From a virus (taxonomy: Duplodnaviria > Heunggongvirae > Uroviricota > Caudoviricetes), in the IMG/VR virus record IMGVR_UViG_2606217106_000005, positions 1 to 11,921 of that record: 11,921 nucleotides of DNA; one strand, given 5' to 3'. The translations under genes and the position numbers were made by a program. This document shows positions 1-11,921 of the stretch, in pieces. How positions within the stretch are numbered: the first letter of the stretch is position 1; every line of letters begins with the position of its first letter. Below the pieces are notes generated by a model that was not told where the DNA came from, did not search any database, and saw only the letters and a list, made by a program, of their open reading frames with translations.

Positions 1-60
1 CCTTCTTATTCATAAGGCGGGACACTTTCAGGATTTTGAATTTATTCAATTTTTTCCTTT

Positions 61-92
61 CTCCAAAATCTCTCCAAAACTTTTCCCCAAAA
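61..92. repeat. Three phased direct repeats CTCCAAAA (61-68), CTCCAAAA (72-79), CCCCAAAA (85-92) just beyond the int stop; candidate integrase arm-type sites
   Basis: Read directly; spacing 11 and 13 bp. In lambda attL the P' arm with three arm-type Int sites lies next to the int 3' end; the assignment here is by analogy only. Confidence 0.3.
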
Positions 93-156
93 CCAGGGCA
101 CGCATTTTACAACACTTTTTTCCTGAAATGGTGACGGATATTCCATATGATGTTTG

Positions 157-1275
157 TTAAATAACCAACTTAACCCATTCCTGACCTCGGGTATCGTTAT
201 AGCGATCGGTGGTAGCCTGGACTTTATGTCCCAGTAATGTTTTTGTATCGACACCCTGTGCGCGGTACAACCGTTCTGACAGGGAGCGTTGTTCATGAAA
301 TGTTGGCGGTGTTTTTCCTGCTGGTGGAATTATTCCAGCCAGATCTCGCGCTTTGGCGAAGTAATCGCTCAGGTTGTCTTTACTCATCGGTTTTGGTTGT
401 TTCTGGTGCCTACTATGGATTAGATATGGACTTAATATTCTGTCTCGGCACCCATCAATAACTTCTTTTAACGTTATCCCAATGGCATCACAGCGTAGTG
501 TAAGCGGTAACGCCAGGCGCATTCCGGTTTTTCCCTGGGTGATATGCAAGTGTTCGTTCCACACATCTGAAAAACGCATGTGGCAAATGTCATCACGGCG
601 CTGACCAGTAACAATCGCAAGAAGCATTGCGTTACGGATAAAGTGTTTTTCAGGCGTTGCGTTGTAAATTTTTTGCCAGTCTTCCAGGGTGAGTCTGGCT
701 CTGGTTACTTTAGGGATCGGTTTACGGGTAGCCTCCGGAGGATTCCATCCAGGAGGAACTTCTCCTGCATGCTGTGCTTCTTTATAAATATCAACCCATA
801 ATCCACGATTTACTCTCGCTGTGCTGACCATGTCTTTATCCAGCCAATCATCCAGTATTAATGCAAAGTCTCTTACTTCCAGTTCTTTCAATGGATGGTT
901 TCCCAGACGGGAAACCAGGTATGCAGCCATTCGGGCTTTTTCTTTGTGAGTTGTAGCTGCAATATCTCCATTTTTCAGTCGCGTGTCCTGTATTTTCAGA
1001 TATCGATCAACCCATGCCTTTAATCTGATACCCCGACGTTTTGTTGCTGACGGACTTTCATCAATTTTGCGCATGAAATATTCAGCTTCTGCTGCAGCTA
1101 TTCGCTGATTGGCTGTGGAAGCGATTTTTTCTGCCTTACCTTTGTCTGTTCCGAGTCCGTGAAATTTTCCAGTCACAGGATTTTTATACTGGTAGTAAAC
1201 TCTGCCAGTTCTGCGATCAAACTTTTCGTAAAGACCGGCTACGTCAGTGCTGTTTTTTCGTGGCCTCGGTGACAT
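157..1275 (-). CDS. int: Phage tyrosine integrase, lambda Int family
   Basis: 372-aa ORF. C-terminal motifs PPTFHEQRSLSERLY and LLGHKVQATTDRYNDTRGQEW align with the lambda Int catalytic HxxR box and the nucleophile Tyr region (DPPTFHELRSLSARLY / LLGHKSDTMASQYRDDRGREW). Start overlaps the 3' end of the xis-like gene, as in lambda. Confidence 0.93.
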   Translation of the reverse strand: MSPRPRKNSTDVAGLYEKFDRRTGRVYYQYKNPVTGKFHGLGTDKGKAEKIASTANQRIAAAEAEYFMRKIDESPSATKRRGIRLKAWVDRYLKIQDTRLKNGDIAATTHKEKARMAAYLVSRLGNHPLKELEVRDFALILDDWLDKDMVSTARVNRGLWVDIYKEAQHAGEVPPGWNPPEATRKPIPKVTRARLTLEDWQKIYNATPEKHFIRNAMLLAIVTGQRRDDICHMRFSDVWNEHLHITQGKTGMRLALPLTLRCDAIGITLKEVIDGCRDRILSPYLIHSRHQKQPKPMSKDNLSDYFAKARDLAGIIPPAGKTPPTFHEQRSLSERLYRAQGVDTKTLLGHKVQATTDRYNDTRGQEWVKLVI

Positions 1276-1522
1276 GAGTTAAAATCTCCTTCAGTGCATC
1301 ATCATCGCCAGTATGAATTTCCGGCGCAATTCCCGTTTCACCAGGCCCAACAAATACTGCTCGGCGATCTATCAGCCAACGCCCACGAATTTTTTGTGGC
1401 CTTGGAACGATGTATCCTAGTTTTCCGTATTTCACCAGGGTAGTGTTTGTTATTGGGAGACTGAACCGTTTTGGTTTCCACTCGTCGAGCGTTATCAGGT
1501 ACTGTTCGCTCATGGCTATCAC
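1244..1522 (-). CDS. xis: Excisionase, lambda Xis-like
   Basis: 92-aa ORF directly upstream of int and overlapping it by 32 bp. Motif YLITLDEW...GRWLI resembles lambda Xis YLTLQEW...REYLF. True start may be the internal Met (MSEQYL, codon at 1511-1513). Confidence 0.75.
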   Translation of the reverse strand: MIAMSEQYLITLDEWKPKRFSLPITNTTLVKYGKLGYIVPRPQKIRGRWLIDRRAVFVGPGETGIAPEIHTGDDDALKEILTHVTEATKKQH

Positions 1523-1574
1523 TCCGGAACGCGCCAGTTGCAGAATATCAACGACAACTGGCGACGGTTGAACA

Positions 1575-4046
1575 TTAAAAATCAGCCTGACTCGGGATCA
1601 GTTTTTGCCAGATAACTGAAACGTATTTTGCCTGGTAACGGGCGTCATCAAGTGCATTATGGCGCTCACCTTCGAATGGAATAGCCGTTCTGGCATCGAA
1701 GTCTATGGCTTTCCCCAGCTCAACGATTGTGCGTACATCGCGATCGTTGTAGTAACGCCACGGGCAGGGGATCCCCTGCCGTTCGTATGAACGGCGCAAA
1801 ATCGTGTTGTCGAAGTTGGCTCCATTTCCCCAGACCTGAACAAAAAATTCACCGGAGTTTTCGTCGATAAATTCCCGCAATTGTAACAGTGCATCATCTA
1901 ACGGGATTTCATCGGTCATAATGGCAGATTGCGCTTCGCGTGATTGCTTAAGCCACCATTTAATGGTGTCCCGATCAATGACTCCGCCAGCAGTTTCCAG
2001 ATCGATAGTCTTACTAAATTCCGGTCCCATATCTCCGGTTTGCGGATCGAAAAATATTGCACCTATTGAGATGATCGGGGCATCAGGATTTTTTCCCATG
2101 GTTTCAAGGTCGATCATTAGATGGTCACACGTCCTGCTGGTGGATGTGATTTCTTGATGACCGTTCACCTTAATTGAGTGATCTGCCGTCTCGCCAGTTT
2201 CATTATCGCTATCGTGATGCTGATTGCCGCCAGTGTTCTCTTTGTGTGGATGTTCAGCGCCTTCCATTTCCTCCGGATCATCTTCCTGAACTTCAACCTG
2301 ATACTCTTCATCGAATGTTTCCTGGTATGTTGCGTCGCCCATCACCGCGCCACAATCAGGGCAGTTGCCGCCGCCGGTCTGACCGCAGGCGGTGCAGATC
2401 TTTTCCGGTTCCTGTTGCACTACTGGTTCAGGTTGTTTCGTTTCTGGCTCGTTTTGTTGCGTACTTGGGCTGTTTTGTTCCGCTTTCTGGTCGTTCTGTT
2501 CCGTTTCTTGCTGGTTCTGGTTCACAGAATCGCGGGTCTGGATCCCATTAACCCATTTCGGATCATTCGGGTCGCTAATCCCTTCAACAAATTCACCACG
2601 TGATACTGCAAGCAGTTCATCGGCGTCAGGCTGGCTGATATTGGCTGCCTGCATAATTTTGTTTACTTCGTCAGCGGTAACTTTTACTGACCCTGGTTGT
2701 GCGGTCGTGTCAGATGCACCAGTATTTTGTTGTGAACCTGAGTATGTACCGTTTTTGCGGGCGAAATATTCTTCTTTCGTGATTTCAGTAGCCCCAGCAG
2801 ACAGCGCCTTATCCAGACCAGAAAGTTTGTTTGCGCGACCGTATTTTTCGCCATCCTTGTCGGTGAAGAGGAAGTAGAACGGCCCCTCACGTTCTACAGA
2901 TGGTTCGACTTCCACTTTGCATTCGGTTTTTTCGTTGTCTGGAATTGCCGTTTCCACTGCATCAGTTTCTGGTACTGGCGACGAGAGAGTATCAGTTGCG
3001 CTCTGATTTGTTCCTTCATCTTCAAACACGCCCTTTGTAGTCAGGTATTCAGTAATGTATTTGTTCAGTGCCACAGGGTCTTTGTGAATGTCGATCGGAC
3101 GTTCACGGACAAGGCCAAAAATAGTCTGGCGGTCGTAGCGAAGGGCATCAGGCTGTTTGCGCATTGATGCCGAGATACGCTTCCAGTCTTCGCGGTCGTT
3201 GTCGATAACTTCATTTTTTGCCCAGCGATGGATGCTGCCGTCAATGTTTCCGGCATCCACATCACCAGGCCAGAGAGCGTAGGCCAGTTCGTCATCCAGT
3301 GTTTTCCATGTCTGCTTGTATTCGCGATGAATGGCAGCAATGACCGGGCTGATTTTTCCTGTTGAATTTTCAGTGTGCTGTTGATTGGTTCTGGCGCGGG
3401 CGAGATCAACAACAGACGTGTATTTTCCGGTTTCCTTGCGTTCACCTTCGCGACGTTTTTTCCAGATGCGCATCTCTGCCTGAATTTCGGGCCATTTGGC
3501 ACCAGGCTTACATTTATGCTTAACGCACCCGATGGCATGCAGCTTAAGCTCCGGATACATGGCGTTAACTTCTGGCATTTTCATCAACGCTTCAACGATA
3601 TGTCCGTCGAATGTTGCCATGTCTTCCTGCAACAATTCCTGTGCGTTAATAACCATATCAACGGTGATGTTTTCACATGTGTCGAACTTAACCATGAGAG
3701 CGTTCTGTACTTCAGGGGCCAGCTTGTCAAAAGTGACGTTCATCAGATCGGATTCAGTCTCAACCGGGACAAAAGAAGCAGAATCCTCATCCCAGCGGTT
3801 TTCCTGCATATATTCAGCATCCCATGAATCGAGGGCAGGGCGGGGTATGCCAGGTTTATCCTCGCAGATAATAAATTTATAAGCGCAGTCCTGAGCAGCC
3901 GGATAATGTTCCAGGAACTGCCAGTGAAATTTTGCTCGAGCACGGCGTTCGTCGCCAGCTTCAATGGCTGTGGCTACAGCCACAGCGCCTTCTTCCCTTG
4001 TTGCCAGTTCGTCAGGAATGGCGGCGCAAATAAAGACTTTACTCAT
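1575..4046 (-). CDS. Large phage exonuclease with C-terminal DEDDh (DnaQ-like) 3'-5' exonuclease domain, Cys4 zinc ribbon and acidic low-complexity linker
   Basis: 823-aa ORF with GAGG SD. C-terminal motifs MIDLETMG (Exo I, D-x-E), GNGANFDNTIL (Exo II), HNALDDARYQ (Exo III, H...D) are visible. CTACGQTGGGNCPDCG is a C-x2-C-x8-C-x2-C ribbon. Sits where lambdoid phages carry exo/recombination genes; I recall similar proteins annotated exodeoxyribonuclease VIII-like, but cannot verify. Confidence 0.8.
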   Translation of the reverse strand: MSKVFICAAIPDELATREEGAVAVATAIEAGDERRARAKFHWQFLEHYPAAQDCAYKFIICEDKPGIPRPALDSWDAEYMQENRWDEDSASFVPVETESDLMNVTFDKLAPEVQNALMVKFDTCENITVDMVINAQELLQEDMATFDGHIVEALMKMPEVNAMYPELKLHAIGCVKHKCKPGAKWPEIQAEMRIWKKRREGERKETGKYTSVVDLARARTNQQHTENSTGKISPVIAAIHREYKQTWKTLDDELAYALWPGDVDAGNIDGSIHRWAKNEVIDNDREDWKRISASMRKQPDALRYDRQTIFGLVRERPIDIHKDPVALNKYITEYLTTKGVFEDEGTNQSATDTLSSPVPETDAVETAIPDNEKTECKVEVEPSVEREGPFYFLFTDKDGEKYGRANKLSGLDKALSAGATEITKEEYFARKNGTYSGSQQNTGASDTTAQPGSVKVTADEVNKIMQAANISQPDADELLAVSRGEFVEGISDPNDPKWVNGIQTRDSVNQNQQETEQNDQKAEQNSPSTQQNEPETKQPEPVVQQEPEKICTACGQTGGGNCPDCGAVMGDATYQETFDEEYQVEVQEDDPEEMEGAEHPHKENTGGNQHHDSDNETGETADHSIKVNGHQEITSTSRTCDHLMIDLETMGKNPDAPIISIGAIFFDPQTGDMGPEFSKTIDLETAGGVIDRDTIKWWLKQSREAQSAIMTDEIPLDDALLQLREFIDENSGEFFVQVWGNGANFDNTILRRSYERQGIPCPWRYYNDRDVRTIVELGKAIDFDARTAIPFEGERHNALDDARYQAKYVSVIWQKLIPSQADF

Positions 4047-4139
4047 TTTGTTTTAACCTCATGACAGATTTAAGGATGAACAAATCCCTGCCATTGCTGG
4101 CATATAAGAATGAAACCGGATATTTATTACGGAACTGTT

Positions 4140-4331
4140 TTAAAGACCTGCCGGGATTTCGATATTATCCTGGTGAATAACTTTATCGACCGGGTAACAG
4201 TTACCGGGAATTTTCTGTTCGGTTGCTGCAGTCATACACTCCTGCATTGTCCTGTGAACACTGACTGCAATATCAACTGGCTCTCCGGAAACAAGAAAAA
4301 CTGTCAGAACAAGTGCAAATGCTGTATTCAT
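4140..4331 (-). CDS. Small hypothetical protein (63 aa) with hydrophobic signal/TM-like N-terminus
   Basis: Start ATG overlaps the stop of the upstream small ORF (ATGA, translational coupling). N-terminus MNTAFALVLTVFLVSG is hydrophobic. Located in the early-left region where lambda has kil/cIII-type small genes. Confidence 0.5.
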   Translation of the reverse strand: MNTAFALVLTVFLVSGEPVDIAVSVHRTMQECMTAATEQKIPGNCYPVDKVIHQDNIEIPAGL

Positions 4332-4516
4332 TGCCAGCATCCTTTTTGTATCGGACGTAAACGGGCCAACATTGAAAGAATGCATATTTTATTTAATAGC
4401 TCCCGTTCGTGTTTTCTCTTGTTAATGGCATCTTCAGTAAATACAGGGTTACTGATAGTGACACCAATTTCAAAACAACCTTCAGACGTATTAACGTTTG
4501 GTAATAACGTTTTCAT
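4328..4516 (-). CDS. Small hypothetical protein (62 aa)
   Basis: Internal Met chosen over the 97-aa ORF-track start because it is preceded by GAGGG 7 nt upstream; stop overlaps the next gene start. Confidence 0.45.
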   Translation of the reverse strand: MKTLLPNVNTSEGCFEIGVTISNPVFTEDAINKRKHERELLNKICILSMLARLRPIQKGCWQ

Positions 4517-5005
4517 TATCGCGCCCTCAACAATGAGTTTTGTGATGCGGTGCCTGGTGCCTCCAGGTGACGTTAACCAGTTAACAATTAACGCCGGATA
4601 CAGAGAATCCAACCATAACACTGTTTTTGGTTTTAACTGTTCCGCGTGCGCTTAGCCGCATTCACCGCATCACAAAATTCACTTTAAAAAGGGCGGCAGA
4701 GCAGTCACGGAGTAAAACTGATACCGCCAAACGTCACCAGAAAATTGATAACAGAGGGCGTTGCAGCGGGGTTGTCACTTAAGCGTATGGTCAACCTGAC
4801 AACCCGGTGTCCTCAACGGGGGAAGGAATACCCCCGCCATACTTACCGCCGCGCCATTTCGCGGATTGCCACAACCAGAAGCGCACGGTCGAAGAAATTT
4901 AACGACAAGACTTATATGCAAAGGGATCTCGCCGTGCGCTTTCGTGTTATGCCCTGACTTTTCAGGGTAAATTAACCTGTGGAAACCTGTTTTTACTGGC
5001 GCTAA

Positions 5006-5245
5006 TCAGTTAGCGTTTCTGGCTAACCAGCGATGCGCGGCAGCTTCGGTTTTAAACGTTTTACTTTTGGTATACGTCATCGCGGTAAACGTGCCGTCCT
5101 GATTGGGAAACACGCCACATACCAGAGATTCGTTGTTGCCAAGCTCGATAGTATCCATGCTGACCTCATTTCCCCTTAACGCTGGGGTAGCGGAACTAAA
5201 AACCTGCTGCGCTGTTATACAAAGTGTTCCCGCCGTCATGTTCAT
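5006..5245 (-). CDS. Hypothetical first gene of the early-left operon (79 aa)
   Basis: First ORF downstream of the predicted leftward promoter; GAGG upstream of the MNM start cluster; no family recognised. Confidence 0.5.
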   Translation of the reverse strand: MNMTAGTLCITAQQVFSSATPALRGNEVSMDTIELGNNESLVCGVFPNQDGTFTAMTYTKSKTFKTEAAAHRWLARNAN

Positions 5246-5339
5246 ACGCCTCGGGCTGGCTACTTAATCCCTGACCACTGCCGGGTAACTCTAGGTATTG
5301 CCCTGTATTGTGTGGGACGGGATGGGTTGGTATGGGAAA

Positions 5340-5408
5340 ACTATAGGAAATGCCTAATTGCTTGTCAATAGGCTATGCCTAATGATTTGGGTGCGACCTA
5401 ATAGGTGA
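5340..5408 (-). promoter_or_regulatory. P_L-like early-left promoter with three operator sites (O_L)
   Basis: Minus-strand TTGACA (plus coords 5363-5368), 17-bp spacer, TATAGT (plus coords 5340-5345). Operator-like sites TAGG-N5-CCTA (5343-5355), TAGGC-tat-GCCTA (5369-5381) and CCTAATAGG (5397-5405), centres about 26 bp apart. Confidence 0.6.
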
Positions 5409-5476
5409 TGGTTTGTGGGAGAGGTAGTAGGAGTTAACTAACGGGAACTAGGAATTTCCCGTCGGACCATATAAGT

Positions 5477-5953
5477 TTAAGTTCCTGTCTTGGTGATGTT
5501 CTGGCTTTTCCGTTTTGATTCTTGATTTTTCAGATAGTTAGCTACCTTCATTTCCATTGCGGCAATGTAGGCGCGAACGTCATGATCAACCCAACTAGGC
5601 TCCGTAGCATTTCCAGATAAGAGGAAAGCCACAATTGCTCTTTTTTCATCAGAGGCGGCTTGATAAAGGCTGTTTATGTCTAAAAGTTCACTTTTTGTAT
5701 CTGAAGTGGATGGGGTTGGTATGGGGTATTCGTTAAGCCCCCAATGCTCTGGACCAACCACATCAGAAAAGAAACGCCATAGTTCTGGAAGTTTGTCTTT
5801 ACTTATCGAACCTTTCTTAATCCAGTCATGGATTGATGGTGGTTGGACTTTGAAATGACGTGCGATTTCCGCCTTTGATTTGACGGCTCCTGATGCAATT
5901 TTTTTGTTGATGGCCTGCTCTATCGCTCGGCCTAAGTCTTTACCACTAAGCAT
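5477..5953 (-). CDS. racR: Prophage repressor, RacR-like HTH protein
   Basis: 158-aa ORF between outward-facing promoters. HTH-like segment SKAEIARHFKVQPPSIHDWIKKGS. Length and N-terminus match my recollection of E. coli Rac prophage RacR; followed divergently by ydaS/ydaT-like genes, as in Rac. Confidence 0.8.
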   Translation of the reverse strand: MLSGKDLGRAIEQAINKKIASGAVKSKAEIARHFKVQPPSIHDWIKKGSISKDKLPELWRFFSDVVGPEHWGLNEYPIPTPSTSDTKSELLDINSLYQAASDEKRAIVAFLLSGNATEPSWVDHDVRAYIAAMEMKVANYLKNQESKRKSQNITKTGT

Positions 5954-5981
5954 TGCTTAATAGTCTCCTATGCGCATCGCG

Positions 5982-6050
5982 TTAGGCAATCCCTACTCTC
6001 GAAGCGTTAGGCATAGCCTATTGACAATCGCATTAGGCTAAGCCTAATAT
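5982..6050 (+). promoter_or_regulatory. P_R-like early-right promoter with three operator sites (O_R), including a perfect 17-bp palindrome
   Basis: TTGACA at 6021-6026, 18-bp spacer, TAATAT at 6045-6050. Perfect palindrome ATTAGGCTAAGCCTAAT at 6032-6048 overlaps spacer and -10; TTAGGC-ata-GCCTA at 6007-6020; TTAGGC half-site at 5982-5987. Confidence 0.65.
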
Positions 6051-6077
6051 TATTGTGTGTTTTTTGGAGTTCATTCG

Positions 6078-6401
6078 ATGAAAAAAGATAACTATTCATT
6101 CAAACGAGCTTGTGCTGTTGTCGGTGGGCAATCAGCAATGGCTAGGCTTTTAGGTGTATCTCCTCCAAGCGTAAATCAATGGATCAAAGGTGTACGTCAG
6201 TTGCCTGCTGAGAGATGTCCTGCGATTGAACGAGCAACAAAAGGTGGTGTCCTGTGTGAAGAACTTCGTCCTGATGTTGATTGGACATACTTACGACGCT
6301 CGTCATGTTATTCGCAGAATATGTCGATGAAGCAACCAAATGACGAAAACGATCATACCCGAAGCATCAAGAGGCAAATGATTCATGAAAATCAAACATG
6401 A
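6078..6401 (+). CDS. ydaS: Cro-like HTH protein, YdaS-like
   Basis: ATG at 6078 preceded by GGAG (6066-6069). Motif GGQSAMARLLGVSPPSVNQWIKGVRQLPAERCPAIERAT is typical of YdaS/Cro-like proteins. First gene after P_R. Confidence 0.8.
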   Translation: MKKDNYSFKRACAVVGGQSAMARLLGVSPPSVNQWIKGVRQLPAERCPAIERATKGGVLCEELRPDVDWTYLRRSSCYSQNMSMKQPNDENDHTRSIKRQMIHENQT

Positions 6402-6810
6402 GCACATCCGCATGGCGATGAATGCCTGGGCATATCCTGATGGTGAGAAAGTTCCAGCAGCTGGAATAACCCAGGCTTATTTTGAGTTGGGTATGACGTT
6501 CCCAGAACTGTATGACGACAGCCATCCGGAAGCCCTGGCTCGCAATACCCAGAAAATTTTCCGCTGGGTAGAGAAAGACACCCCTGATGCAGTTGAAAAA
6601 ATTCAGGCGTTGTTACCAGCGATCGAAAAGGCAATGCCACCTTTGCTGGTGGCCAGAATGCGCAGCCACAGTTCAGCTTATTTTCGGGAGCTGGTGGAGA
6701 CGCGGGAACGACTGGTGAGAGACGCTGATGATTTTGTCGCAGTGGCGATCGCTGGTTTCAACCAGATGAATCGTGGTGGCCCTGCAGGAAATATTGTGGC
6801 TGTGCATTGA
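6385..6810 (+). CDS. ydaT: YdaT-like protein, putative toxic partner of YdaS
   Basis: 141-aa ORF overlapping the ydaS stop by 17 bp; GAGG SD; same position and size as Rac prophage ydaT. Confidence 0.7.
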   Translation: MKIKHEHIRMAMNAWAYPDGEKVPAAGITQAYFELGMTFPELYDDSHPEALARNTQKIFRWVEKDTPDAVEKIQALLPAIEKAMPPLLVARMRSHSSAYFRELVETRERLVRDADDFVAVAIAGFNQMNRGGPAGNIVAVH

Positions 6811-6881
6811 CTCGCAATATTCATACCGGATCACTTCCGGCAATTTGTGAGTAAAAAGATTCGGTATCAAAAGAGGTGAGT

Positions 6882-7952
6882 ATGGCTAACGCCTGGCTCA
6901 GATTATGGCATGACATGCCAAATGACCCTAAGTGGCGAACAATTGCCAGGGTGTCAGGGCAGCCAATTGCAACAGTGATGGCAGTGTATATCCACCTCCT
7001 GGTGAGCGCGTCACGAAATGTCACGCGAGGTCACATTGATGTCACGACAGAAGATTTGGCAAGTGCGCTCGACGTGACAGAAGAGGTAATTGATTCAATT
7101 TTGCAGACGATGCAGGGGCGGGTACTTGATGGTGATTTAATCACTGGATGGGAAAAACGCCAGGTGCTTAAAGAGGACAACGGCAATATTTCGCAAACCG
7201 CAAAATCTCCTGCAGAGCGCAAGAGGGCGCAGCGAGAGAGGGAAAGAAAGCGGGAACAAAATGGCGATTGTCACGGCGCGTCACGAAATGTCACGCACAT
7301 GTCACGACGAGTCACGACAGATAAAGATACAGATAAAGATACAGATCAAGAAGATCAAAACACTATGGTCCATGGCGTAAAAAACGCCACGAACCAGGCA
7401 GGGGATGTTCAGACCGTCAATCTTGGTCAGCCAGCAGGCACGACACCGGAAGCCGATTCAGCGTATGCGCTGAAAGCCGATTCGGGCGCTGTGCAGCAGG
7501 TGATGACCGCAAGGCCGGAGCAATCACACCAACTGCAGCAGCCCGAAGCCGATTCCGCCATTCAGCGGGAAGCCGATCGGGTAGTCCCGGAAAACACCGG
7601 GCAGTCTGTGGGACGAGTGGATTATCCGGATGTGTTCGAACAGGTCTGGCGGGAGTACCCGTTGCGTGCTGGGGCAAACCCGAAGAAATCCGCTTTCAGT
7701 GCCTGGAAGGCCAGATTACGCGAGGGGGTGCCACCAGAGGCCATGCTGGATGGCGTGAGGCGTTACGCAAGATACTTGGCGGCTACCGGGAAAACGGGAA
7801 CGGAATTTGTTCAGCGAGCGACGACGTTTTTTGGACCGGACCGGAATTTTGAAAACCCCTGGTTGCTCCCGGTAAGCGGCACGAACAACCAGCGTTGTGT
7901 TAATCATATTTCTGAACCGGACACCGAAATTCCGCCGGGATTCAGAGGGTAA
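6882..7952 (+). CDS. Phage replication initiation protein (replisome organizer, O-like) containing the putative origin
   Basis: ATG at 6882 with GAGG SD. N-terminus AWLRLWHDMPNDPKWRTIARVSGQPIATVMAVYIHLL resembles phage replisome-organizer N-domains. C-terminal FEQVWREYPLRAGANPKKSAFSAWKAR...WLLP resembles the conserved C-domain of phage replication proteins. Iteron clusters lie inside the gene. Confidence 0.75.
   Translation: MANAWLRLWHDMPNDPKWRTIARVSGQPIATVMAVYIHLLVSASRNVTRGHIDVTTEDLASALDVTEEVIDSILQTMQGRVLDGDLITGWEKRQVLKEDNGNISQTAKSPAERKRAQRERERKREQNGDCHGASRNVTHMSRRVTTDKDTDKDTDQEDQNTMVHGVKNATNQAGDVQTVNLGQPAGTTPEADSAYALKADSGAVQQVMTARPEQSHQLQQPEADSAIQREADRVVPENTGQSVGRVDYPDVFEQVWREYPLRAGANPKKSAFSAWKARLREGVPPEAMLDGVRRYARYLAATGKTGTEFVQRATTFFGPDRNFENPWLLPVSGTNNQRCVNHISEPDTEIPPGFRG
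7006..7050 (+). repeat. Iteron cluster 1: four TCAC(G) repeats at one-helical-turn spacing
   Basis: TCACG at 7011, 7021, 7042 and TCACA at 7031; inverted copy CGTGAC at 7073-7078; a 21-bp block GCGCGTCACGAAATGTCACGC is repeated exactly at 7276-7296. Confidence 0.6.
7271..7342 (+). repeat. Iteron cluster 2 (five TCACG repeats) followed by a 12-bp tandem duplication AGATAAAGATAC x2
   Basis: TCACG at 7271, 7281, 7291, 7302, 7312 (spacing 10-11 bp); tandem 12-mers at 7319-7330 and 7331-7342, then degenerate AGATCAAG copies; A/T-rich flank consistent with a DNA-unwinding element. Confidence 0.6.
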
Positions 7953-7989
7953 CAGATTTCAGGTCATGGGGTAATTTTCAGGAGGGCTT

Positions 7990-8412
7990 GTGGCAAAAGT
8001 TTTTACACAAGAAGAGCGGGAAAAAATTAAAGGGCAGGTTGTTGAACTCGTACGCCAGAGTGGGCGCGAGACGTTACGACAACTGGAAACTAAAACTGGG
8101 GCAACAAGATATCTGATGAGCGTTCTGGCCAGAGAGCTGGTTGCCAGTGGCGATGTATACAATTCTGGCTACGGGTTATTCCCGTCTGAACAGGCTCGTA
8201 AAGACTGGCAAAATGCCCGCAAAAAACTCTCAAGGGCAAAGCTGAAGAAACCATCTGCGGTTGATCCGGACCTTATCTGGTCATTACCAGATGGCGAAAT
8301 ACGCCGCTACGACAGGCGTCTGAACATAATCTGTCTCGAGTGCCGGAAGAGCGAAGTTATGCAGCGCGTACTGGCGTTTTATCAGGGGAATTTTGAGGAG
8401 GTGGTGCGGTGA
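7990..8412 (+). CDS. Hypothetical protein (140 aa), first gene of a translationally coupled trio
   Basis: GTG start with GGAGGG SD (7981-7986); stop overlaps the next start (GTGA). Confidence 0.55.
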   Translation: MAKVFTQEEREKIKGQVVELVRQSGRETLRQLETKTGATRYLMSVLARELVASGDVYNSGYGLFPSEQARKDWQNARKKLSRAKLKKPSAVDPDLIWSLPDGEIRRYDRRLNIICLECRKSEVMQRVLAFYQGNFEEVVR

Positions 8413-8663
8413 GTGAATCAAAATGCCAGGTTAATGGCAACAAGATAGAACCATGTGCAGCACTGGCAAAGTCCCTTGAGCATGATGCTGAATACACGAT
8501 GCGAAAAGGTCTGCTGATATACAAAATCTGGAATGAGAGTTTAACTCGCGGTCCTGATTTTGTGATGTTGCGTTCCGGTGAATTTTCTAAATTACCAGTT
8601 CGGGTTTCATTTTGTCCGTTCTGTGGTGAAAGTCTGAAAACGTGGGAGAACAGAAATGAATGA
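8409..8663 (+). CDS. Hypothetical small Cys4 protein (84 aa), possible zinc ribbon
   Basis: GTG start after GAGGAGG; cysteines in CQVNGNKIEPC and CPFCGES suggest a metal-binding ribbon; overlaps both neighbours. Confidence 0.5.
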   Translation: MSESKCQVNGNKIEPCAALAKSLEHDAEYTMRKGLLIYKIWNESLTRGPDFVMLRSGEFSKLPVRVSFCPFCGESLKTWENRNE

Positions 8664-8967
8664 AATTAAAGAAATACCAGTAGTACGTGATGAATATGGC
8701 TGCTGGACGCATCCTGAATATGAAAAATTCTGTGACGGTCGGGAATATATTTCAACGGAAGAGTTTAACGCCTGGATGGAGGAAAATAATCTTCAATACG
8801 TCCTCTGCTTCAGAGATGAAGGATGTGCTGACCTTGATGCGTGTGATGCTGATATTTCTGCATGGGAACCGGAACGACCAGAGGGCAATGGATGGTTTAT
8901 TGGTTCAATACATGACACCGAAGATGGCCCGGTTTGTGTATGGCTGAGAAATAAGGCCGAAGCATAA
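8656..8967 (+). CDS. Hypothetical acidic Cys-rich protein (103 aa)
   Basis: ATG overlapping the upstream stop (ATGAATGA); GGGAGA SD; six cysteines; no family recognised. Confidence 0.55.
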   Translation: MNEIKEIPVVRDEYGCWTHPEYEKFCDGREYISTEEFNAWMEENNLQYVLCFRDEGCADLDACDADISAWEPERPEGNGWFIGSIHDTEDGPVCVWLRNKAEA

Positions 8968-9272
8968 AGGCTATAAACCGACTAACAACTAAATACTGAA
9001 GATTTAAATCAGAAACGATTTTTATTAAATCCTTAACCGGAGGGATTCTGCACCCTCAGAACATCAGGAGGCCGTCTGAAAGGGCGGAACAGATAATGCT
9101 TACGTTGAAACATTTTATCGACATACCAACATGGTTAGCCGTCATTGCTTTTGTTAAAATACACATCCACTTTTCTGTGCAATGTTTAACCACTGGTCAT
9201 ATCAAATGGCATTCATGCGAACCATGATATAGAATCATGGCTTGAGAGAGTCGATGAAAGCGCAACTATGGT

Positions 9273-9851
9273 ATGAGAGACATTGATGTAAGAAAGGCTG
9301 TGCATGCCAAGATTCTGAGAGATCATCATAAAGATCCTGACACCCTAATCATTGATGAGTTTACGATGAATCTAGGGGCTAGCAGAGCTGATATAGCAGT
9401 GATCAATGGGCTTATACATGGTTATGAGTTGAAGAGCAAGAGTGATAACTTGCTCAGATTACCAGCGCAGGTGCAACATTACTCATCAGTGATGGATAAA
9501 GTAACTTTGGTTGTCTCTGATTGCCATCTTTATGATGCTTTAAGCATAGTTCCATCATGGTGGGGGATAAAGCAAGTTACGCAAGGTGCACGGCAAGGTA
9601 TCCATTTAAAAACAATTCGAACTAGCAAGTTGAATCCACAAGTGGACAAACTTTCCTTAACAATGCTTCTTTGGAAAGATGAATTGCTTTCCCTATTAAG
9701 TGATGTAGGGGAGCTACAGAATTTGAAAAATAAACCTAAACGCGTCTTATGGTCAAAACTCGCCAATAGTATGGATGTTGGCGAGCTTCGTGAAGCTGTT
9801 CGAGTTAAACTTAAAGCCCGTAAAGAGTGGCGAGTTGCTCAACAACCTTAG
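9273..9851 (+). CDS. PD-(D/E)XK-type nuclease-fold protein (192 aa), sce7726-like by recollection
   Basis: Motif arrangement IIDEF (E29) ... RADIAVING (D40) ... GYELKSK (E52-x-K54) matches the restriction-endonuclease-like core. Putative extended -10 (TGaTATAGA, 9225-9233) upstream. Confidence 0.7.
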   Translation: MRDIDVRKAVHAKILRDHHKDPDTLIIDEFTMNLGASRADIAVINGLIHGYELKSKSDNLLRLPAQVQHYSSVMDKVTLVVSDCHLYDALSIVPSWWGIKQVTQGARQGIHLKTIRTSKLNPQVDKLSLTMLLWKDELLSLLSDVGELQNLKNKPKRVLWSKLANSMDVGELREAVRVKLKARKEWRVAQQP

Positions 9852-10908
9852 TTATGTGATGGTTTTGCCCAATCCTACGCCATACCTCTGGGCTACCAAA
9901 TTTATAGTTACCAGAGGGATTGGCTTTGTAGGCTTGATACTCGTTTGCATAATATTCTATGTCTCTATCTCCCGCACAGAATGTAGGCCCTGAATATTCT
10001 CGATGAGCAAGAATATCCTCACTATGTTTACCATATTGTTCATAACCAAAGCGATTAGCTACTCTTCCTCGAAATACCCAAAAGTCATTATCTCCAGAGT
10101 ATCTGACGCTGGCAGATACGCTAGGGAATCGCGTCGAAAGCCTATTAAAGTCGGGGTGCTGTACTCCATAATCACTATAAATCACATTTCTGGCAAGTTC
10201 TTTTCTATTCATTAAACTCTGCCATAAAATCCACTCGATTCGAGGTTGAGAATATAGACCAACAGAAATATCACTGAGATCTGTAGGAAATGAACCCCCA
10301 GAAAGAATCACTTTTCTGTATTCATTGAGGTGCGCCAGATTGTTTATCAATCCCATTGCCAAAGTATATAGTTCGCCGGAATTAATTTTATCCTCGGTTA
10401 ACTCATCTCTTAAGTCAATAATTATATCAATATTTGATAAAGGAATTCCCAGATGATTAATGTAATGCGTTATTAATTGTGGGTTAACCAGATCTAACGT
10501 GGTTAATCTCAAGCATATTTCATTCTGCATTAATTCATCAATCGCTCTTTTATAGTTAGATGGGCGAGTTGGTGAACTGACAGGAATAACTCTTATCCCC
10601 ATATCTCTAACTTGATTAACCGCATTTATTATAGGGTAATGATCTTCAGGAGAAATAAAATGCTCTTCAATTAATAATCCATCAATATAAACACCTTGCA
10701 TATCTGAGCAAGATTTTGAGACTTTCTTTCCGAACTCTATAAGAGTCTCGTTATAACTCTTTAAGGCAATACCTGAATCAGGGTCAATTGGCACTGGTTC
10801 AATTTCGAGTAATGGCAAAATTTTTGATTTCTTTTCAATGGATAGCTGCGATAAAGCTGATAACTCAGAACGTTTCGCTTTCAGAATAGGAATATATGAA
10901 ATTGTCAT
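9811..10908 (-). CDS. Beta-protein / sce7725-like family protein (365 aa), function unknown
   Basis: Long ORF with AAGG SD 8 nt upstream of ATG. N-terminal MTISYIPILKAKRSELSAL matches my memory of the conserved start of this family. No Walker or other catalytic motifs recognised. 3' end overlaps the convergent 192-aa gene by 41 bp. Confidence 0.7.
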   Translation of the reverse strand: MTISYIPILKAKRSELSALSQLSIEKKSKILPLLEIEPVPIDPDSGIALKSYNETLIEFGKKVSKSCSDMQGVYIDGLLIEEHFISPEDHYPIINAVNQVRDMGIRVIPVSSPTRPSNYKRAIDELMQNEICLRLTTLDLVNPQLITHYINHLGIPLSNIDIIIDLRDELTEDKINSGELYTLAMGLINNLAHLNEYRKVILSGGSFPTDLSDISVGLYSQPRIEWILWQSLMNRKELARNVIYSDYGVQHPDFNRLSTRFPSVSASVRYSGDNDFWVFRGRVANRFGYEQYGKHSEDILAHREYSGPTFCAGDRDIEYYANEYQAYKANPSGNYKFGSPEVWRRIGQNHHITKVVEQLATLYGL

Positions 10909-11339
10909 GTTAATACCTTATACAGAATCAATTAACAATTAATGGTTCTTCGGACATTGAAATTTATATCGCAAAAATTGGCAAACTCTCCTCGACTACT
11001 CACTTGTGGGTATCCTGGCGTAAAAGGAATGACTTGGCAATACCCGGTGTGATCATAAGTCATTGAAAATGATCATTTTTATCAGTCTTTCTTCCATGAT
11101 GAATGCTAATGCCATTTGATTTGTTGAGGTGAAAACTGTTAAAAATCAAAACGATGTAATTGAAATGAACGTTCGGTAGCATTCACGCTTTAAATGTTTC
11201 TTTTGTGCTGATTGGATGAATTTGGGTCACTTCTGATGAGAGATGTTGCAGGAAAAGAAGTTGGCATTGATCTATTGGATAGTTAGAATTACTGCGGGTG
11301 CTTGAGGCTATCTGCCTCAGGCATGAACACCAAAAGGCA

Positions 11340-11420
11340 GATAGAGAAAAGCCCCAGTTAACATTACGCGTCCGGCAAGACGCTTAACATTAATCTGAGG
11401 CCAATTTCATGCTTTGCACA
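11340..11420 (-). ncRNA. Candidate Sok-like antisense RNA of the hok locus (approximate)
   Basis: Inferred only from the canonical hok/sok organisation (antisense RNA opposite the hok mRNA leader/mok start); no clear promoter or terminator could be pinned down by eye. Confidence 0.25.
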
Positions 11421-11465
11421 TGTAGGTTAGCCTCTTACGTGCCGAAAGGCAAGGAGAAGCAGGCT

Positions 11466-11621
11466 ATGAAGCAGCAAAAGGCGATGTTAATCGCCCTGAT
11501 CGTCATCTGTTTAACCGTCATAGTGACGGCACTGGTAACGAGGAAAGACCTCTGCGAGGTACGAATCCGAACCGGCCAGACGGAGGTCGCTGTCTTCACA
11601 GCTTACGAACCTGAGGAGTAA
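11466..11621 (+). CDS. hokD: Hok-family type I toxin (HokD/RelF-like), 51 aa
   Basis: Translation MKQQKAMLIALIVICLTVIVTALVTRKDLCEVRIRTGQTEVAVFTAYEPEE has the Hok signature (single TM helix, LTRK..LCE.R) and matches my recollection of E. coli RelF/HokD. GGAG SD; in-frame upstream ATG at 11409 gives a 70-aa mok-like extension. A 9-bp inverted repeat (11308-11316 / 11336-11344) lies in the leader. Confidence 0.85.
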   Translation: MKQQKAMLIALIVICLTVIVTALVTRKDLCEVRIRTGQTEVAVFTAYEPEE

Positions 11622-11921
11622 GAGACCAGGCGGGGGAGAATCCCATAAGCGCTAACTTAAGGGTTGAACCATCTGAAGAATGCGACGCCTCGGTGCCTCG
11701 TTAAGACGATGCCTCGCGTTCTTCAATTGCGTTTTGTAGGCTGTCAGGGATACTGTCCCACGAATGGCCACCTGTAAGCTCCAGATGACCATTTTTGTTA
11801 TTCTCCACAACGAGTTAGTTCTTCTTTTCGGATCCGGCACTTCTGGGGGGGGAATCCAGCGATGGCTGGATTATGTCGTCAATTAAAAATGCGGCGAGTA
11901 GATTAGCAAATATCCACGCTT

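Follow-up and report, generated by a model that had tools for sequence, protein, structure and literature searches.

A beta family gene and its overlapping cII-like partner in an Escherichia coli prophage: a candidate two-gene phage defence module

The DNA analysed here (hereafter the window) is a stretch of 11,921 nucleotides (nt), positions 1 to 11,921 of the IMG/VR virus record IMGVR_UViG_2606217106_000005 (Caudoviricetes), and represents a mosaic Rac-like lambdoid prophage of Shiga-toxigenic-type Escherichia coli. Two convergent genes with overlapping 3' ends, namely, a beta family gene (beta) and a sce7726/P4 cII-like gene (cII), lie in an AT-rich cassette of this prophage (Table 1). The guanine-plus-cytosine (GC) content was 0.34–0.42 over approximately 9000–11250 compared with 0.45–0.57 in the rest of the prophage. 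A previous interpretation of the letters alone, made without database searches (the sequence-only reading), had described beta as the largest gene of an AT-rich island; this description holds, and the open reading frame (ORF) and its product were recovered at exactly the coordinates and length that it gave. RefSeq lists the identical coding sequence under the name 'beta family protein' (WP_000156213.1), and the product of the convergent gene is labelled 'sce7726 family protein'. Homologues with 58–73% identity in Enterobacter, Serratia, Dickeya, Photorhabdus, Xenorhabdus, Yersinia and other genera keep the same length and N-terminus, as do homologues over a wider range of 47–73% in other genera, thereby indicating that the beta gene and its start codon are real.

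Table 1. Positions of the beta/cII pair and of other features in the window (aa, amino acids)
Feature	Position	Strand	Description
beta family gene	9811..10908	(-)	365 aa, ATG to TAA; predicted triosephosphate isomerase (TIM) barrel
sce7726 / P4 cII-like gene	9273..9851	(+)	192 aa; predicted PD-(D/E)xK nuclease and C-terminal helical domain
Antiparallel dual-coding overlap of the beta and cII 3' ends	9811..9851		41 nt, stop-to-stop coordinates
AT-rich cargo cassette (approximate limits)	9089..11284		~2.2 kb; from flank sharing and GC profile
Shine-Dalgarno-like TAAGG	10916..10920	(-)	7 nt before the beta ATG; direct sequence reading
TATAAAT	10962..10968	(-)	54 nt before the beta start codon; lacks a -35 element at the right distance
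Promoter-like ATGGCA-18-TAGAAT	9206..9235	(+)	9/12 matches, 38 nt upstream of the cII-like start; weak evidence, number of such sites at chance level
sok (Rfam)	11296-11471		119.8 bits; mok/hok ORFs end at 11621
DicF antisense small RNA (Rfam)	4691-4742	(-)	76.7 bits; dicB/ydfC region
'Exonuclease' ORF	1575-4046	(-)	823 aa; RefSeq: exonuclease

The pairing of beta with cII was analysed in two sets of loci. The genome set was obtained by a scan with one genome per species (78 loci) and, together with the E. coli reference locus (L001), comprised 79 loci from Enterobacterales, Aeromonas, Bacillota, Bacteroidota, Myxococcota, Acidobacteriota, Planctomycetota, Chloroflexota, Nitrospirota, Patescibacteria and other taxa. 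A cII homologue was detected in 78 of these 79 loci using single-sequence phmmer with the window cII as query, and the remaining locus (L015) ends at a contig edge directly after beta. In all 78 loci with cII, this gene was located downstream of beta on the opposite strand, and the 3' ends of the two genes overlapped. The overlap ranged from 8 to 140 nt with a mode of 50 nt, compared with 41 nt in the window; these lengths are independent of start-codon choice because they are set by the stop codons. The overlap length equalled 2 mod 3 in 77 of the 78 loci, such that the antiparallel frames were held in a constant register. The exception, a Bacteroidota metagenome-assembled genome (L008:7059-7095), has a 37-nt overlap (1 mod 3), which may stem from a frameshift in the cII C-terminus or from a sequencing error. 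The viral set came from an independent IMG/VR scan and comprised 58 loci, 54 with an intact beta and 4 with a truncated beta; all 54 intact loci showed the convergent overlap with a length of 2 mod 3. The pairs that are annotated in RefSeq overlap by 41, 47 and 59 nt.

Altogether, the two genes converge, overlap at their 3' ends and share a common frame relationship in 131 of the 132 genome and viral loci. This constancy indicates that the overlap is ancestral rather than a repeated accident, and it makes the beta/cII locus an unusually clean case of an antiparallel gene overlap conserved across many phyla. The sequence-only reading had suggested that beta could be the partner of an adjacent nuclease and had named co-occurrence with sce7726-like genes as a check; the analysis of the two sets bears this out, with a sce7726/P4-cII PD-(D/E)xK neighbour paired with beta in every usable related locus. 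In the window, the overlap encodes beta residues 353–365 and cII residues 180–192. It contains TGGCGA/TCGCCA, which specifies W186-R187 of cII and A360-L359 of beta, and the conserved core CAG(C/A)TCGCCAA encodes Q-L-A-(N/T) of beta on one strand and W-R of cII on the other. The RNA structure at the window overlap was not significant (z-scores of -0.5 and -1.2), and the terminator and promoter scan identified nothing there. Each transcript must run into the other gene, because no terminator is predicted at the overlap.

The cII product matched the NCBIfam model NF033832 (sce7726_fam) with 191.1 bits against a cut-off of 70, and its residues 1–184 aligned with positions 1–183 of 184. The PADLOC 'cll' model also recognised it (97.7 bits, 2.4e-28), and its homologues carry the Pfam family PF26915 (Phage_P4_cII). 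E29, R38, D40, E52, K54, S55, D58, R62 and Q66 were invariant or nearly so in alignments of 26 and 79 sequences. The protein is predicted to adopt a restriction-endonuclease-like fold carrying a D...(D/E)xK motif, in which E29, D40 and E52-x-K54 are intact. The prediction that the window cII is a nuclease is thus well supported for fold and motif.

The beta product belongs to the Beta-protein family, as the sequence-only reading had proposed. The Pfam family PF14350 (Beta_protein) matched it from end to end with 178.3 bits (E 3.8e-52; gathering score 27), residues 5–356 aligning with profile positions 1–341 of 342. PHROG 9159, a family of unknown function, matched residues 1–364 on positions 2–355 of 356 (E 5.5e-145). 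The same reading had also called the protein sce7725-like, and this part failed. The NCBIfam model NF033831 (sce7725_fam) was tried and rejected, as it scored 12.3 bits against a cut-off of 60 and covered residues 5–39 only; it matched none of the 10 other beta proteins tested, including one from Sorangium. At best, sce7725 is a remote sister of PF14350. The PF14350-type beta family comprises approximately 4,300 cluster representatives at 50% identity, and its members are essentially all single-domain proteins of 340–420 aa. The N-terminal YIPILKAKRSEL signature that the sequence-only reading had recognised is real and forms the best-conserved stretch of the family, with Y5, P7, L9, K10, K12 and E15 conserved in at least 95% of 81 beta proteins. 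Near-universal residues in these 81 proteins from many phyla are Y5, P7, L9, K/R10, K/R12, E15, P32, D76, P109, R134, D165, P208, R223, D246, Y270, G338, W343, H350 and H351, and the window beta retains every residue conserved in at least 95% of the set.

An AlphaFold2 model of beta, built with 25 homologues, was obtained with a predicted local distance difference test (pLDDT) score of 92.3 and a predicted template modelling (pTM) score of 0.92, and showed strands alternating with helices. The confident model is a (beta/alpha)8 TIM barrel and superposes on solved TIM barrels; beta has no close relative of solved structure. PDB sequence searches with single proteins and with profiles of beta and cII gave no match. 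K10/K12/E15, D76, R134, D165 and D246 fall at or just past the C-terminal ends of strands, as mapped from the secondary-structure string rather than from coordinates. R223 and H351 also count among the near-universal polar residues at C-terminal strand ends. The active or ligand site of a TIM barrel usually lies at the C-terminal strand ends. With near-universal charged residues at these positions, the modelled beta protein looks like an enzyme or a ligand-binding barrel, and not like an inert adaptor. The previous statement that beta has no recognisable catalytic motif is therefore correct as far as a named motif is concerned, but it overlooks the near-universal polar residues at the strand ends of the barrel.

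Relatives of the two genes occur in two validated systems. The gop-beta-cII locus of satellite phage P4 protects against lambda and P1 (Rousset et al., PMC9122126), and the coliphage accessory gene orf184 triggers killing by gop-beta-cII (bioRxiv 10.1101/2023.04.06.535777). Gop is toxic when beta is absent, according to PMC9122126, which cites Ghisotti 1990. PD-lambda-2 consists of a HigB-like protein A, an Xre-helix-turn-helix (HTH)-peptidase protein B and a protein C, of which B is toxic and is neutralised by A (Vassallo et al. 2022, PMC9519451). The C component, a PF14350 protein, has been called 'related to a P4 phage antitoxin'; defence against lambda-vir depends on it, and neutralisation of the toxin does not (PMC9519451).

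The architectures of the 78 genome loci fell into several classes. In 32 loci, genes for HigB_toxin and HTH/Peptidase_M78 proteins accompany beta and the convergent cII (PADLOC PD-Lambda-2_A 125–129 bits, PD-Lambda-2_B ~470 bits), and nine loci have the HTH/Peptidase_M78 gene, beta and convergent cII with no called HigB. Another nine combine an Xre-peptidase-like gene, an unannotatable protein of approximately 200 aa, beta and cII. Beta and cII stand alone in 21 loci, which include all Enterobacterales loci, the Bacillota loci and Sorangium. The Xre-peptidase gene is located elsewhere in the locus in four cases, and in three the contig is too short upstream for the architecture to be assigned. 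The additional protein of the third class (~200–240 aa; among others L040:5375-5977, L066:5372-5980, L058, L071, L074, L076, L078 and L079) lies between the Xre-peptidase-like gene and beta, matched neither Pfam nor PADLOC models, and could represent a further exchangeable accessory.

The cassette of the window occupies a variable slot between replication-module genes and hokD/sok. The flanks (left flank ending at ~9088; right flank beginning at ~11285 in the sok/hokD region) were found in more than 4000 E. coli genomes, and the cassette was present in 93 of 5,426 complete E. coli genomes. Other and related prophages fill this slot with different small cargo genes. Where the cassette is identical, RefSeq lists hokD as the only adjoining gene, and tblastn also located the cassette on an E. 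coli plasmid record. In the search for a third gene, neither the 43-aa ORF at 9096-9227 nor the two intergenic regions showed conservation outside E. coli. The expression signals of beta are modest. The sequence-only reading had described a strong Shine-Dalgarno sequence; the TAAGG element is present and acceptable, but it is not strong. The TATAAAT that had been taken for part of a beta promoter also exists; however, the closest -35-like element (TTGCCA) is spaced by only 10 nt, the promoter scan did not flag the TATAAAT site, and promoter-like elements in the region were not above chance (8 sites versus 7.6 ± 2.5 in shuffled sequence).

Besides the cassette, the prophage contains an integrase, an excisionase, a large exonuclease, DicF, a cI/cro-like pair, replication genes and hokD/sok. 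The product of the exonuclease ORF has a long acidic and glutamine-rich middle part and a C-terminal DEDD-type 3'-5' exonuclease part. Among the complete E. coli genomes in the collection, the highest coverage of the window at a single place was at most 86%, and the immunity and replication region of this prophage differs from that of genomes with an identical cassette. A second E. coli pair (L081:3134-4763 in GCA_023722765.1, also L082 and L083) encodes a beta protein of 355 aa and a cII protein of 206 aa and consists of two genes only; this cII is 53% identical to that of the window, the overlap is 59 nt, and the pair is located between the Rz lysis gene and the terminase gene Nu1 of another lambdoid prophage. 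An integrase/resolvase island harbours a third pair (66% beta identity). In other phyla, the Pfam families most often represented among 100 neighbouring ORFs were serine recombinases, Toprim/DUF927 primases, type I restriction-modification (R-M) specificity subunits, SNF2, ResIII and PLD. An AT-rich, rare and slot-borne context with neighbours of this kind is typical of mobile defence cargo.

This context also bears on two other explanations of the pair. The cassette adjoins the replication and nin regions, the cII of P4 owes its name to a clear-plaque phenotype, and some database names read 'regulatory protein', all of which would suit a pair of phage life-cycle regulators serving the lysogeny/lysis decision of the prophage or its DNA processing. 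We regard this role as very improbable, given that the cassette is missing from most otherwise similar prophages, that the pair also occurs in non-phage islands of many phyla and is joined into PD-lambda-2-type operons, and that gop, beta and cII are non-essential in P4 (PMC9122126). Directly to the right of the cassette, a complete hokD/sok type I toxin-antitoxin locus is located at window 11296-11621, and thus two killer-type modules adjoin. The pair could be an addiction or stabilisation module that resembles hok/sok and retains the prophage or island as a toxin-antitoxin-like pair with no meaningful anti-phage effect. Its adjacency to hokD/sok and its constant presence on mobile elements agree with this explanation, as does the description of both validated relatives as toxin-antitoxin-like, and the overlapping antisense layout may recall antisense-controlled toxin-antitoxin loci. 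The relatives do protect against phage, however (PMC9122126, PMC9519451), and no toxicity has been reported for cII or beta alone, such that pure addiction appears unlikely; it is also not truly exclusive of defence, because many toxin-antitoxin modules serve both roles.

On this evidence, we favour reading the cassette as a defence or abortive-infection module, with a probability of roughly 60%. Under this reading, beta would be the TIM-barrel half and the cII/sce7726 PD-(D/E)xK nuclease the other half of an ancient two-gene module. Borne alone as cargo of a Rac-like prophage, the module would guard the lysogen as a minimal system of abortive infection or superinfection exclusion. A specific division of labour can be put forward tentatively, in which the cII-like nuclease would be the effector and a conserved pocket at the C-terminal face of the beta barrel would bind a ligand or a phage-derived trigger, or process it, thereby gating the effector. 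The role of beta as sensor or gate is suggested by three observations: P4 beta restrains Gop, PD-lambda-2 C is required for defence and not for neutralisation, and beta is the constant partner of three effector types. The obligatory antisense overlap would preserve the co-inheritance of beta and cII, and, since transcription of either gene has to continue into the other, it may link their expression as well.

Several points weigh against the defence reading. The toxic component reported in the validated relatives is Gop in P4 and PD-lambda-2B in PD-lambda-2, and not cII. The nuclease activity of cII is predicted from its fold and motif only. Regulatory antisense coupling through the overlap is speculative, as the overlap showed neither a significant RNA structure nor a terminator. 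Our literature search retrieved no experiment on a beta/cII pair free of gop and HigB/Xre-peptidase, and no mechanistic study was found in the literature on sce7725, sce7726, PF14350, PF26915 and orf184. Lastly, the published PD-lambda-2 clone extends 387–396 bp beyond its three genes and cannot hold a full overlapping cII, which needs approximately 530 bp or more, yet it defends against lambda-vir; either ECOR42 therefore lacks cII, or the defence against lambda-vir is independent of cII. In the search for the ECOR42 locus (QOYB01000002), no E. coli protein occurred among the best 120 matches to a PD-lambda-2-type beta profile, and tblastn of plasmids for the PD-lambda-2 locus returned HigB/ImmA-IrrE pairs with no beta beside them.

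A broader proposition, which we consider doubtful at present, is that beta/cII is an autonomous and ancient two-component immune module and the true core of both validated systems, in which a TIM-barrel enzyme or ligand sensor controls a PD-(D/E)xK nuclease, and that the overlap, locked before many bacterial phyla diverged, serves as an antisense switch for expression. If this were true, Gop and HigB/Xre-peptidase would be interchangeable add-on effector modules, and PD-lambda-2 would have been studied so far without its fourth gene. The beta gene family, its name, its link to two defence systems and the RefSeq annotation of this gene are already known. In the literature searched, the following were not described: the accessory-free two-gene unit as a widespread stand-alone element in prophages; the role of beta/cII as a core common to Gop-beta-cII and PD-lambda-2, with cII in every PD-lambda-2-type operon examined; the phase-locked antiparallel overlap across phyla; and the predicted TIM-barrel fold of beta with a conserved polar site. 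The minimal pair is the simplest setting in which to learn the function of beta, a subject on which the literature searched contained no paper. The result also has consequences for annotation, since tools that demand gop, or HigB and Xre-peptidase, will miss two-gene beta/cII loci.

Four known systems can be compared with the window pair. The first is the sce7725/sce7726 pair. The window resembles it in that the neighbour of beta is a full-length member of sce7726 and the first 35 residues of beta resemble the sce7725 profile; it differs in that the window beta and 10 sce7726-paired beta proteins fail the sce7725 model.

The second comparison is with convergent type II R-M loci, in which the gene of a PD-(D/E)xK nuclease likewise lies tail-to-tail with that of a partner enzyme as mobile defence cargo. 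The window genes could be an R-M-like pair, in which beta, a TIM-barrel enzyme that modifies nucleic acid or exchanges bases, would mark self DNA and cII would cut unmarked incoming DNA. The partner in the window is a predicted TIM barrel and not a methyltransferase, and TGT and DpdA scored no better against the beta model than dozens of unrelated TIM barrels. Sequence-level kinship of beta to solved enzymes was not found in the PDB searches. The genetics of the beta/cII relatives also do not agree with a protect-and-restrict logic. In PMC9122126, which cites Ghisotti 1990, the lethality of beta loss in P4 is attributed to Gop and not to cII, which argues against a simple model of beta as a cII antitoxin as well as against an R-M-like model; moreover, PD-lambda-2 defence needs beta in a clone unable to hold a full cII. 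An R-M-like pair is thus quite unlikely.

The third comparison is with P4 Gop-beta-cII (PADLOC gop_beta_cll), which, like the window, has a convergent beta (PF14350) and cII (sce7726/PF26915) on an E. coli mobile element. The P4 and window proteins are distant, with 28% identity for cII (E 2e-17; 264 aa versus 192 aa) and 23% for beta (E 1e-8), and the PADLOC P4-type 'beta' model (PDLC02985) matched the window beta weakly and only at N-terminal residues 4–40 (18.2 bits, 2e-4). The P4 genes are the known exception to the overlap, being convergent yet 27 nt apart with a terminator in between, whereas the window pair overlaps. Unlike P4, the window contains no gop; a gop homologue was found neither in the window nor in 85 other loci, save P4 itself (phmmer, E up to 10). 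P4 Gop is a protein of 133 aa, and its hydrophobic N-terminal stretches suggest that it may be membrane-associated.

By profile score, the window beta is closer to PD-lambda-2 than to P4. It matched the PADLOC PD-Lambda-2_C models PDLC03983 (140.4 bits, 1.8e-41) and PDLC03984 (130.7 bits), better than the P4-type model. The window lacks PD-lambda-2 A (HigB_toxin) and B (HTH and Peptidase_M78), and the region upstream of beta (10909-11408) contains no ORF longer than 43 aa. In PD-lambda-2-type operons of many phyla (L016, L018, L020-L025, L028-L033 and others; e.g. L025:4468-7645), a fourth gene is observed, namely cII/sce7726. This gene is convergent with C, usually overlaps it by 50 nt and lies outside the published three-gene definition, which thus leaves out a cII-like gene that is present in every PD-lambda-2-type operon examined. 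The other half of the operon also occurs by itself, as the Acinetobacter plasmid NZ_CP032281.1 (L085, 13095-14582) carries a PD-lambda-2 A/B-like pair of HigB and ImmA/IrrE genes without beta/cII, which suggests that the two halves of PD-lambda-2 can be separated as modules. Gop-beta-cII and PD-lambda-2 have been catalogued as unrelated three-gene systems, and the present comparison reveals a shared two-gene core that is also free-standing in prophages. A constant beta/cII core joins interchangeable accessory modules, and the window is the bare core.

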